Shown: one piece after another, positions 21,070 to 48,022 of the stretch
How the letters are laid out: each line of letters opens with the position of its first letter
Numbering within the stretch: position 1 is the stretch's first letter
Source of the DNA: Nitrospinales bacterium
GTDB lineage: Bacteria; Nitrospinota; Nitrospinia; Nitrospinales; VA-1
Assembly: GCA_965262115.1 (NCBI GenBank)
Contig: OZ253496.1
Location: 2,496,001 to 2,560,000, forward strand
Direction: 5' to 3'
Length of the DNA: 64,000 bases
Position numbers and translations under genes: made by a program
Notes under the pieces: generated by a model
Database searches by the model: none
What the model was told of the DNA's origin: nothing
The model's input: only the letters and a program-made list of their open reading frames with translations

Positions 21070-21167
21070 CCGGCGAGCCGCCGGTGACCGTGATATTCTT
21101 CCTTAACCTTCGTGAGCCTGTGATATCCCCTTCGCTAAATTCATGCCCGGAACGGGTAGAACGGGTA
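21069..21167 (+). repeat. ACCGGCGAGCCGCCGGT palindrome followed by a nested pair of GTGAT..GGGTA mini-elements (outer 21089-21118+21159-21167, inner 21119-21158)
   Basis: Direct reading; removing the inner copy restores a 39-bp copy. Confidence 0.85.
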
Positions 21168-23301: not shown

Positions 23302-23446
23302 GAGTACCCCTTGTATGTTGTTCATAAGGGGAATTTGTAGTAGTTGTACCTGTGAGCCCTGTGGGAAGCCGGTTTTGTGTTTTCCACAAGGCTCACAGGT
23401 ACAACTACTACAAATTCCCCTTATGAACAACATACAAGGGGTACTC
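23302..23446. repeat. Long inverted repeat with 57-bp perfect arms
   Basis: 23302-23358 is the exact reverse complement of 23390-23446; imperfect inner stem. Confidence 0.95.
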
Positions 23447-29890: not shown

Positions 29891-30097
29891 GAGAGCTTTG
29901 CATAACCTGAGATTACCCTTTCAGGGCACGAAAGTTTTGGTGAAATATCACGTCTTCATCGCGTACGCTCTTCAGAATGACAAAATAGCTCTTTATTGTC
30001 ATGCCGAGCTAGTGATATTTGACCTTTGAATTCTTGCCCTGTAGGGGTATCTCGAAGCATCTCGCTTTTTTGATTTTTCGACTTACGCAAAGGTCTC
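29891..30097 (-). mobile_element. MITE (GAGACCTTTGC.. TIRs) carrying two inserted 39-bp mini-elements (29914-29952, 30011-30049)
   Basis: Colinear with the reverse complement of 46234-46361 once the two inserts are removed; flanks CCTTGGCAG and CTTAGGCAG look like a decayed 9-bp TSD. Confidence 0.88.
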
Positions 30098-45199: not shown

Positions 45200-46096
45200 A
45201 TGAGAATCATTAGTAGCGACACCCATTTCGACTTCATGGGTAAAACCAAAATGACCCTGACCATTTCAGGGTTGGTGATCCTGATCGGCTTGGGGTCCAT
45301 TGCCCTGTCCGGCGGGTTGAAGTTTGGCATCGACTTTTCCGGTGGAACCCTGATTCAATTACAGTTTAAAACTCCGCCGGATATAGAAGTGATTCGCGAT
45401 GGGTTGAAGACCATTGGCCTTGGCGAGAGCACGATTCAGGAGTTTGGAACGAAACGCGACATCCTCATTCGTGTACAACGTTCAGAGGAAAAACTGGAGG
45501 AGGTAGGTTCTCAGGTTCGCAACAGTCTGGGTGGAAAATTTAATAAGGCGGATATCACCATCGAAAGGGTCGAAATGGTGGGGCCGAAGGTGGGCCGTGA
45601 CTTGAGAGAAAAAGCCCTTCTTTCCATCTTGTACGCCATCATCGGTATTGTGATTTATATTTCCTGGCGCTTTGAGTTGCAGTATGCCATCGCCGCGATC
45701 ATTGCTCTAATTCATGATGTGCTGGTCACCATGGGCGCGTTTTCAATTTTGGATAAAGAATTCACCCTCGTGATTGTTGCCGCGTTTTTAGCCATCATCG
45801 GTTACTCCCTGAACGATACCATTGTCGTTTTTGACCGCATCCGGGAAAACAATCGCCGAAGAGGAAAAAACACGCTTGTTCAAACTATCAATGCCAGTAT
45901 CAATCAGACATTGAGCCGGACACTGCTCACTTCCGGAACAACGTTGATGGTGGTTATCGCCCTTTTTTTCTTTGGTGGAGAAATCATTCATGATTTTTCT
46001 TTTGCCCTGCTGGTAGGCGTCCTGGTCGGAACCTATTCCTCTATTTTTATCGCCAGCGTGTTTCTGGTTTACTGGGACTCTCGACGGCGAGCGTAA
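45200..46096 (+). CDS. secF: Protein translocase subunit SecF
   Basis: GIDFSGG, GYSLNDTIVVFDRIRE, GTYSSIFIA. Confidence 0.97.
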   Translation: MRIISSDTHFDFMGKTKMTLTISGLVILIGLGSIALSGGLKFGIDFSGGTLIQLQFKTPPDIEVIRDGLKTIGLGESTIQEFGTKRDILIRVQRSEEKLEEVGSQVRNSLGGKFNKADITIERVEMVGPKVGRDLREKALLSILYAIIGIVIYISWRFELQYAIAAIIALIHDVLVTMGAFSILDKEFTLVIVAAFLAIIGYSLNDTIVVFDRIRENNRRRGKNTLVQTINASINQTLSRTLLTSGTTLMVVIALFFFGGEIIHDFSFALLVGVLVGTYSSIFIASVFLVYWDSRRRA

Positions 46097-46413
46097 CCGG
46101 CGAGCCGCCGGTGGCAGTGTGATAGCTCGTTGAGCCGAGGGTATCGTTCTAGCTATCGTGATATTTGTAATATCCCCAACATTAGCCTTCATGCCCGGCA
46201 CGGGTACTTCCCAAGCTTTTACCCTTTCAGGGCGAGACCTTTGCATAAGTCGAAAAATCGAAGAATCGAGATGCTTCGACAAGCTCAGCATGACGATACT
46301 GGGCCATTTTGTCATTCTGAGGAACAAGGTGACGAAGAATCTCGACTTATGCAAAGCTCTCTTTCAGGGCATGAAGGCAAATAAAGAAATATCACACGTG
46401 CTCCGCAGGGGTA
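46096..46413. repeat. Composite repeat: palindrome 46096-46112, outer mini-element 46157-46413 containing inner copies 46166-46206 and 46220-46396
   Basis: Removing the inserts gives CGTGATATTCTTCCCAAGCTTTCGTGCTCCGCAGGGGTA (39 bp). Confidence 0.85.
46234..46361 (+). mobile_element. 128-bp MITE with 20-bp TIRs and 9-bp TSD
   Basis: TIRs GAGACCTTTGCATAAGTCGA and TCGACTTATGCAAAGCTCTC (19/20 match); TTTCAGGGC duplicated at 46225-46233 and 46362-46370. Confidence 0.92.
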
Positions 46414-46554
46414 AAACGATATACCCAGTTACCAACCGTTCAGCCTTGATAAGTTTCCCGCCAGTCTGAATTCATCTGTCCGTTGGAATCATTTGCAATC
46501 TTCTTTGAGCCCGTGCTACATTCAGATTTAAGCCTGCTAAAGAGAGTTTAATTA

Positions 46555-47295
46555 ATGAGTGTTTCCCCAAAACTTCAACTTCAGCAACTGATCCTTTTGC
46601 AGAACCTGGATGATGAGATTGGTGGGCATAAAAAACTACTCGCTGAAATTCCTGTTCAGTTAGATGCTGGTCGCGCGGAACTGGAAGATATAAAGAAAAT
46701 CCTTTCAATTGCTAAAGAAGAAATAGACACATTACAAAAAAATCGTAAGGCTATTGAGTCGGAGGTTCAGGGCGAAAATGACCATATGGCGAAAGCCAAG
46801 ACGAAACTAACAGCGGTAAAAACCAACAAGGAATACACCGCTATTCTTGCCGAGGTCGATGCGATTAAGGTAAAGGTTGCCGGGCTGGAAGATAAAGAAC
46901 TGGAAATCATGGAAGCCCTTGAAGAAAAGCAAAAGGAGATTCCGGGAGTCGAAAAAAATTTCAAGGAAGAGGACGCCCGCTTCCAGGAATACAAAACAAA
47001 AAAAGATGGTGAATTGAGCAGGATGAAGCAAGAGTTGGATGTCTTTATCGCCAAGCGTGAGACGCTAATGGAGCAGGTTGATAAAGTGTTAGTGCAACGC
47101 TATGAAAAAGTTGCGAAATCCCGCGAGGGCAGGGCGGTCGCCTTGTTGCAGGAAAATATTTGCCAGGGATGTTTCCAGCAGATTCTACCGCAGATGGTGA
47201 TAGACGTTAAAGTCGGTGAAAAAATCCAGCAATGCTCAAACTGCTTGAGTTTTTTATATTGGGAAGAAATTCCAGAAGCCGCAACGCCGAAGTAA
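46555..47295 (+). CDS. C4-type zinc ribbon coiled-coil protein (DUF164)
   Basis: L..LQNLD start, long coiled coil, CQGC..CSNC. Confidence 0.88.
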   Translation: MSVSPKLQLQQLILLQNLDDEIGGHKKLLAEIPVQLDAGRAELEDIKKILSIAKEEIDTLQKNRKAIESEVQGENDHMAKAKTKLTAVKTNKEYTAILAEVDAIKVKVAGLEDKELEIMEALEEKQKEIPGVEKNFKEEDARFQEYKTKKDGELSRMKQELDVFIAKRETLMEQVDKVLVQRYEKVAKSREGRAVALLQENICQGCFQQILPQMVIDVKVGEKIQQCSNCLSFLYWEEIPEAATPK

Positions 47296-47661
47296 ACCGG
47301 GTGATCGCTGTTTCGGCTTTATGGCCGGGAGAGAGGAAAGTCCGGGCTCCACAGGGCAGGATACTCCGTAACGCGGAGTGAGGGCGACCTTAAGGAAAGT
47401 GCCACAGAAAATACACGGCCTACCCGGCTCATGTCGGCGGCAAAGGTGAAAAGGCGAGGTAAGAGCTCACCAGTACCGTTGGTGACAGCGGTAGCTTGGT
47501 AAACCCTATCCGGAGCAAGATCAAATAGGAAAGTGCTTGAGGGCGGCCCGTCCGATACTTTCGGGTTGATTGCTTGAGCCTGCTGGCAACAGCAGGCCTA
47601 GATTAATGGTCACCACTTCATGCTTCATGAAGTACAAAACCCGGCTTATGGTTTACTTCGG
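47287..47661 (+). ncRNA. rnpB: RNase P RNA (class A)
   Basis: GAGGAAAGTCCGGGCTCC, AGTGCCACAGAAA, ACAAAACCCGGCTTA; P1 helix CCGAAGTAAACC/GGTTTACTTCGG. Confidence 0.97.
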
Positions 47662-48022
47662 CTACCCGGCCTGCTAGGCGCAGGGCCAAAATACAATAGC
47701 TTTTGTTTGCTGGCAAAGAGTTGTCTCGGCTTGAAGAGCAGTTGCTGTTTGTCTGTCCTGTGTTGTGCTACGTCACTTGCCTCCATGCCTAGAGGCTGGA
47801 GTCTCGTCATGTGGCTCCGAATTTGGGGTCTGGGAGTGCCACGCTGTGCAGGGCGTTGACGAGCAACACCATTATTGCCAGCAGGGTGATCGGTAGAATG
47901 TAATGGGAAACAGGTGGTCGGCGTAGCTGCTGGGGGCAAATAGCCATGACTTTCTATGCGTTCCCGTGTGCCCTACAGCTTGCAATAATATTTATGCCAC
48001 GAAGTGTGCTATAAAAGTCATA

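Follow-up and report, generated by a model that had tools for sequence, protein, structure and literature searches.

How repeats of REP size spread is a long-open question, as the excerpted text of PMC8266576 puts it. REP, BIME and REPIN–RAYT systems, as portrayed in parts of three papers (PMC8266576, PMC3116915 and PMC3733652), are short, high-copy, intergenic, hairpin-bearing, non-autonomous, clustered and targeted by IS110, and they share all of this with the unit of about 40 bases that we describe here. IS200/IS605 elements and their non-autonomous derivatives (covered in part by PMC8266576) resemble the unit in leaving no target duplication and in having a subterminal hairpin, a strand-specific anatomy and a probable end-to-end junction.

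Three such units occur in a nest of mobile elements in a 64-kb window (the whole stretch of DNA that was analysed, to which bare positions refer) of G000, a genome of 2.68 Mb in a single contig from a marine bacterium of the Nitrospina type. The nest itself matters less than the unit, since nested mobile elements are ordinary and the unit's behaviour is not. The unit family offers exact ends, pairs of filled and empty alleles and a reproducible two-base mark at the target; these restrict the possible chemistry and bring the mechanism within reach of tests.

The nest behind secF

The nest is placed between secF and a coiled-coil/zinc-ribbon gene, with RNase P RNA next downstream. It consists of four successive insertions of two kinds of element, an IS5-type MITE and three units of 39–41 bases:

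45200–46096, + strand: secF, an open reading frame (PF02355, E = 4e-68) with a stop codon that runs into base 1 of the hairpin 46096–46112
46096–46112, no strand: G+C-rich hairpin, defined by its fold, where secF stops; it forms a repeat family of its own (D5)
46113–46156, no strand: left part of the putative host repeat in which the outer unit was inserted, from orthologues; it includes 46118–46143, with a core seen with other flanks
46157–46165, + strand: first 9 bases of the outer 39-base unit (C-start/G class), from peeling; contiguous with the 46207–46219 part in G007
46166–46206, + strand: forward 41-base unit of the GGCAC loop class, at the reused site after base 9, with no duplication
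46207–46219, + strand: middle part of the outer unit, its pyrimidine-rich spacer, from peeling
46220–46233, − strand: hairpin end of the reverse 40-base unit, including the first copy of the 9-base duplication (46225–46233); uninterrupted in G013 and G007
46234–46361, no strand: 128-base MITE with IS5-family terminal inverted repeats; its interior is a pair of TGTC-ended palindromes
46362–46370, no strand: second copy of the 9-base target duplication, an exact match to 46225–46233
46371–46396, − strand: remainder of the reverse unit to its start, at the reused opposite-strand site
46397–46413, + strand: 3′ hairpin and fixed end of the outer unit, from peeling; one additional unit follows it head-to-tail in G013
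46555–47295, + strand: coiled-coil/zinc-ribbon gene (PF24481, E = 2.6e-15; PF02591 below the cut-off), the orthology anchor
47289–47663: RNase P RNA (RF00010), overlapping the last bases of the coiled-coil/zinc-ribbon gene

Automated peeling of the whole genome, innermost layer first, removed the forward unit and the MITE with one duplication copy, then the reverse unit and then the outer unit. All coordinates of the three-level nest in the preliminary description were confirmed in this way. Layer removal rebuilt three intact units of 39, 41 and 40 nt and one 128-nt MITE with an exact 9-base duplication; the rebuilt outer unit (39 nt, + strand) spans 46157–46413, the rebuilt reverse unit (40 nt, − strand) spans 46220–46396, and each rebuilt unit fits the G000 family of 280 copies. 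The palindrome that was said to precede the cluster is present at 46096–46112; it has 13 genomic matches and also occurs in G013 and G007. Similar copies of this hairpin repeat are found in the window at 21070 and 62691. The interpretation of 46118–46143 as a 26-bp minimal variant of the unit had to be given up: it reads GCGATA, not GTGATA, in G013 and G007, and its core recurs with other flanks four times in G000 and three times in G013, so that it belongs to another repeat. Similar sites, one of them empty in G013, point to 46113–46156 as the host repeat of the outer unit. An Rfam search of the window returned RNase P RNA only. At 23302–23446 the window holds a 66-base inverted repeat, 97% complementary, with a 13-base loop.

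Alignment of the secF intergenic region across relatives, which had been proposed as a check, revealed intermediate states in two genomes. The G007 locus has the outer and reverse units only, with neither the forward unit nor the MITE. The G013 locus has the outer unit, the reverse unit and, at the same base as in G000, a different forward unit; the MITE is absent. An allele with the outer unit alone was not found among the orthologous loci compared, and the nest is absent from 12 other same-genus loci, one of which has a single unit there. The order of insertion can thus be recovered, as the preliminary description had claimed: nesting forces outer unit, reverse unit and MITE to follow one another, and G007 and G013 match earlier states. 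Parsimony suggests that the reverse unit preceded the forward unit. The forward variant of G013 differs from that of G000 at 9 spacer positions (counted by eye), and the G000 variant has five matches in G000 and none in G013; the two forward units therefore reflect a second insertion or a conversion, not drift.

Mis-assembly is excluded, as independently assembled relatives share the outer and reverse units. A contig from run X6, which belongs to another study, omits exactly 137 bases, corresponding to the MITE and one duplication copy. Contigs from run X1, which may be the source sample, match 45700–46185 and 46315–46900 without difference, and none spans the middle.

The 128-base element is an ordinary IS5-family MITE. 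It resembles other members in having terminal inverted repeats common to a resident IS5-type transposase gene and a duplication of fixed length, and it shows no essential difference from them; its interior is made up of TGTC-ended palindromes, often holding units. The family has 79 paired copies, 43 of them with an exact 9-base duplication. A 1,173-bp insertion sequence, intact in G013 and in fragments in G000, has the same ends (the first 16 bases of the MITE are identical to it) and 9-base duplications, exact in three of its four full copies, and its transposase matches PF01609 and PF05598 (IS5-type). MITE targets are C-rich/G-rich palindromes, with stems of at least five pairs at 15/44 and 31/76 sites, as against about 75 of 1,000 random non-coding sites. 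The MITE does not favour the unit: only 1/44 and 0/76 exact MITE sites lie within one. The general preference for palindromes, together with these counts, therefore explains the MITE in the nest: it hit the reverse unit because the unit hairpin fits its target consensus.

At 29891–30097, the window holds a 207-base MITE with a unit (29914–29952) at a site used by more than 150 units in G013 and G000; this composite appears to spread as a whole. Small GIY-YIG genes (G000:C1:2573218; G013:C1:1118932, 1938018 and 81264) have TGTC-ended palindromes alongside, like those of the MITE interior. They are candidate partners of such palindromes because CGTC-type repeats are said to be without a dedicated transposase in the excerpted text of PMC3733652. 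DUF559 genes (9 matches in G000, for example C1:377385, 660936, 735444, 1034378 and 2140509) have inverted C-rich/G-rich hairpin repeats alongside, of a kind often hit by the MITE and by the 40-base unit alike.

The 40-base unit and its targets

The unit consists of a YGTGATA start, a pyrimidine-rich spacer and a TTCR-TGCCC-loop-GGGTA end. We found 280 copies in G000 (250 at a stricter cut-off) and 460 in G013 (in 2.8 Mb of its 2.86 Mb), with 14 and 7 in reversed-sequence controls; nearly all are intergenic. The strict pattern was present in 16 of 18 same-genus genomes and in none of 12 from other families of the order. In an all-species scan, 77 of the 80 loci listed were titled Nitrospinota; of the other three, one is a genuine unit and two probably match by chance. 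A search of viral contigs gave four matches, and two IMG/VR contigs (L161 and L163) carry genuine units, possibly as a route between genomes or as host DNA in the contigs.

Insertion of the unit leaves no target duplication: repeats between the flanks measured 0–1 base at 429 of 455 sites, with a maximum of 3. When 219 and 417 units were compared with orthologous loci, 40 and 30 were resolved, and 12 and 3 of these (15 among 70) had an exact empty orthologous site with zero length change. The family represents hundreds of natural insertions, and the unit is still mobile.

Base 1 of the unit covaries with the purine R at the hairpin foot (T–A in 257 and C–G in 173 of 493 distinct units), and both states are seen on near-identical spacers (2 identical pairs and 21 pairs with one mismatch). 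The two ends of the unit therefore likely pair with each other. A second end pair shows weak covariation (P = 0.01). The base-1/R pair lengthens the hairpin only when the unit start is placed after the unit end, so that a circular fold closes the stem across the junction; such folds have hardly any stability (−0.6 to +2.2 kcal/mol). Of 277 five-base loops, 253 have a GNA core and 263 a paired closing position. We also observed head-to-tail arrays of identical 39-base units, with one spacer variant, at L345:1979–2570 (14 copies) and G000:C1:814839–815074 (4 copies). Some units in G013 combine the left flank of one known site with the right flank of another, which suggests deletions between two units.

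Empty sites in G000 exist uninterrupted elsewhere as multi-copy repeats in 168 of 210 cases, compared with 147 of 600 non-coding sites taken at random, and they also form better folds than controls matched for G+C. The target word is limited to a G at −5 (66%) in about 316 contexts; there is no fixed tetranucleotide. Some units lie within other units, and because unit copies are kin, the ratios here are descriptive and the P values overstated. In G000, 37 of 250 units are nested, with 32 host contexts against 2.2% of non-coding DNA (P = 2e-15); in G013, the numbers are 22 of 434, and 20 contexts against 4.0% (P = 0.29). The proposed comparison of nesting frequency with intergenic space therefore gave enrichment in G000 and none in G013. 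Head-to-tail placement adds 15 units in G000 and 56 in G013.

Insertions inside units are confined to about five bonds, including both bonds used in the secF nest. Nine hosts have an insert at the site after base 9, and at least 10 have one at the opposite-strand site. Each has its own unit variants: inserts after base 9 have the GGCAC loop in 9/9 cases (30/440 distinct units overall), and among distinct inserts at the opposite-strand site, 8/9 carry a TG placed six to seven bases ahead of R (40/440 overall). The three bases after the unit are YYY at 37/41 sites of GGCAC-loop units and at 43/480 sites of others. The earlier suggestion that the elements prefer one another or hairpins thus stands for the unit, where it comes down to a few exact bonds that are used again and again; the MITE prefers palindromes in general and not the unit. 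Two further nests are present in the window:

21089–21167, + strand: second nest, with unit 21119–21158 within the hairpin of another unit and the AG change described below at 21115–21116
647–726, − strand: third nest, with unit 677–717 at the site after base 9; the site is empty in G013

Insertion is accompanied by a change in the left flank. When a unit lies where the loop of another unit begins, the host CC at −4/−3 has become AG in 24 of 34 cases, is CC in 9 and GG in 1, and AG is absent from intact unit hairpins (0/206 and 0/376, or 0/582). In an unrelated second host repeat, AG was found in 17/22 filled copies, 0/46 intact copies in G000 and 1/39 in G013 (pattern counts, which may include chance matches). 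Five clear ortholog pairs have CC when empty and AG when filled, with the neighbouring bases kept. Of five further genomes, three contain a single site with both AG and a unit, and an intact AG hairpin is absent from all five. Relative to the nearest empty paralogs, substitutions were most frequent at −4 (25/132 sites) and −3 (19/132), with 6–16 at other positions. The forward and reverse units of the secF nest show no AG change.

A template for AG is absent from the inserted unit and from nearby sequence. One native repeat site agrees with the unit hairpin site at 8 of 10 positions, the sole difference being AG at −4/−3; it has 11 empty copies in G000 and 85 in G013, three copies filled with that right flank, and is used by units in G013. 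Going by this match, it is a candidate donor for AG. For the second host repeat, we identified no native donor of AG. Across 350 context pairs, units that are related but lie in unrelated hosts agree in their flanks from −5 to +4 more often than unrelated ones (at −2, 0.57 compared with 0.34; at +1, 0.55 compared with 0.27). Sharing is at background from −8 to −6 and from +5 to +8, and is somewhat raised at −10, −9, +9 and +10, so host relatedness was not wholly removed from the comparison. An apparent one-sided carry-over of donor flanks, strong at first, came to 7/49 compared with 5/51 once duplicates and large classes were dropped. Left flanks can also differ widely between near-identical units, which shows that flank inheritance is not universal.

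How the unit may move

This behaviour likely points to an undescribed way of moving. We tentatively favour a single-stranded unit with paired ends that carries short donor flanks, which guide it to look-alike sites; because the AG change needs a template and flanks are shared from −5 to +4, we infer a single-strand intermediate that includes donor flanks. The unit would move as a single strand, its two ends pairing into a dumbbell. End pairing would join the donor's left and right flanks and recreate about 9 bases of the donor's own empty site, and these would base-pair with a target of similar sequence, in most cases a hairpin repeat whose single strand is exposed. The unit would loop out and be joined in by a nicking and joining enzyme, with mismatched flank bases sometimes fixed to the donor's version, giving AG. 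Donors nested in a unit would home to the same bond in other units, as units resemble each other, and so build Russian dolls. Filled and empty orthologs show zero net change in flank length at unit insertions. Nine bases of partial homology are very short, which limits the flank-guided reading. It is possible, though doubtful, that the unit is the first of a class of minimal mobile DNA that is guided by its own flanks and overwrites target mismatches, served by an unrecognised Nitrospinaceae protein that nicks and joins single-stranded DNA. If so, target specificity would be inherited and would evolve without change in a protein or an RNA guide.

A mobilising enzyme was not found among the families searched (Y1 and Y2 HUH, reverse transcriptase, tyrosine recombinases, GIY-YIG, DUF559 and GxxExxY). 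Reverse transcriptase was discarded, being present in only two of five genomes and broken in G000. Of the candidate enzymes, unit-rich genomes have in common only two tyrosine recombinases of about 300 amino acids, which from their size and ubiquity we read as XerC/XerD. The small GIY-YIG and DUF559 genes have other repeat families alongside; GxxExxY is limited to G008, with a different repeat in the 231 upstream bases (upstream side only), and an ORF with an HUH motif was spurious. Inspection of the 13 and 31 genes with units on both sides gave no plausible mobiliser, and no gene was reached from orphan unit ends.

It is rather unlikely that the unit is instead a non-autonomous element that forms an exact single-strand circle, is re-inserted in trans by an HUH-type enzyme (IS200/IS605- or RAYT-like) and has its target read by the protein or by pairing of the unit. 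The stem that is complete only across the end-to-start junction, the absence of target duplication and the arrays of identical head-to-tail units (14 in L345, 4 in G000) would all fit, and cleavage beside a hairpin selected by a guide is a mode of HUH enzymes in the excerpts of PMC8266576. However, PF01797 (Y1 HUH) matched in 7 of 31 genomes and in none of the unit-richest (G000, G013 and G007), with the eight loci elsewhere not flanked by units, and PF04986 (IS91-type Y2) gave a single 47-amino-acid fragment in 23 genomes. The targets lack a fixed tetranucleotide, and we saw no general complementarity between spacer and flank (left 5 bases, z = 0.7); one register among the 27 tried reached z = 4.4 with a small effect. 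A flank-free circle also offers no template for AG.

Another unlikely explanation dispenses with a dedicated enzyme: template switching or gene conversion between copies of a host repeat would copy the unit and a few neighbouring bases into an empty copy. It would suit the 80% of empty sites that are multi-copy repeats (168/210), the co-conversion of flank bases and the lack of any shared candidate enzyme in unit-rich genomes beyond the two recombinases of about 300 amino acids, and conversion could also account for the two forward variants that occupy one site in G000 and G013. Yet the unit ends are exact over about 300 different target contexts, the change is limited to −4/−3 while host bases 5–10 away are kept, the base-1 covariation and GNA loop imply selection by a reader of the fold, and for some of the empty orthologous sites no repeat partner is evident.

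Random insertion, with nests surviving only in dispensable repeats and with AG variants that were already there being picked out or selected afterwards, is very improbable. In its favour, self-nesting is not enriched in G013 (20/434, P = 0.29) and nearly all copies are intergenic, as expected under purifying selection, but the reuse of single bonds already contradicts it, as do the separate unit variants at each of the roughly five bonds within units and the absence of AG from 582 intact hairpins and from orthologous empty alleles. The earlier suggestion that such sites are simply the only tolerated ones likewise leaves single-base reuse, the coupling of variant to target and the flank change unexplained.

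An IS110 element is aimed at the unit. G000 has 24 PF01548 matches, all to one IS110, represented by

G000:C1:120331–121586: IS110 copy L311 (PF01548 and PF02371; DEDD and Tnp20), with about 25 other copies

The IS110 ends abut the arms of the unit hairpin (left, 25/26; right, 26/26). The DNA before the gene is predicted to fold like a bridge RNA (z = −3.4), with one loop that matches the unit on both strands and another that matches the IS110's own junction. The bridge RNA of IS621 similarly has one loop for the target and one for the element's own junction, in the text seen of PMC11208160. If the predicted fold is right, the G000 IS110 would be a known kind of bridge-RNA element directed at the 40-base unit. 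One copy lies in a unit in an IS5 remnant (C1:131168–133357), another three-level nest. That the IS110 recombinase, with its bridge RNA, mobilises the unit as well is hardly credible. In favour, nearly all IS110 copies lie in the unit hairpin, predicted target guides match that hairpin and AG is the complement of the IS621 CT core (in the excerpt of PMC11208160), but by these guides the unit is a target, the donor guides fit the junction of the IS110 and not that of the unit, AG lies two bases outside the unit and on one side only, G013 has the most units and a single broken IS110 copy, and the incomplete genomes G008 and G018 have no PF01548 match.

Comparison with known systems

If flanks guide insertion, as in the reading that we favour, the unit would provide scarless, sequence-directed DNA insertion unlike that by bridge RNAs or IS608 guides. 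We found no prior description of the 40-base family in the literature searched, which left most subscription journals outside its coverage. Small dispersed repeats SDR1–8 of Nostoc, 21–27 bases long and limited to Nostocaceae, were reportedly described by Elhai and colleagues in 2008. By this description, these repeats (cited in PMC5861425) are like the unit in being tiny and mobile, with a site preference and no known enzyme.

The unit works like a non-autonomous single-strand element of the REP or IS200 type, yet lacks several of the features by which members of either type are recognised. The palindromes of REP and REPIN sequences are tagged at the foot by GTAG or CGTC, whereas the foot of the unit is TTCR (493 distinct units). 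The mobile form of REPIN is an inverted doublet; the unit is single and asymmetric, with two fixed ends, and is present or absent singly at 15 orthologous sites. RAYT genes are flanked by their repeats, whereas unit-rich genomes have no RAYT. The parts of PMC8266576, PMC3116915 and PMC3733652 that bear on these systems, from which these traits are taken, describe no left-flank change like that of the unit. IS200/IS605 elements have two hairpins and a fixed target of 4–5 bases on the left, whereas the unit has one hairpin, no such target and a length of 40 bases; they also have a cognate TnpA with the same ends, and none was found for the unit.

IS621 (PMC11208160) and ISPpu10 (10.64898/2026.03.19.712850), in the text available of each, are like the G000 IS110 in targeting REPs or stem-loops and in having a left-end RNA, predicted in G000, with target and donor loops; the G000 element differs in that its target is a still-mobile 40-base unit. 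[quoted passage not shown] SE adds a 6-base footprint on the right and encodes tyrosine recombinases; at the 40-base unit, bases on the left are replaced with no gain in length, and the unit encodes nothing.
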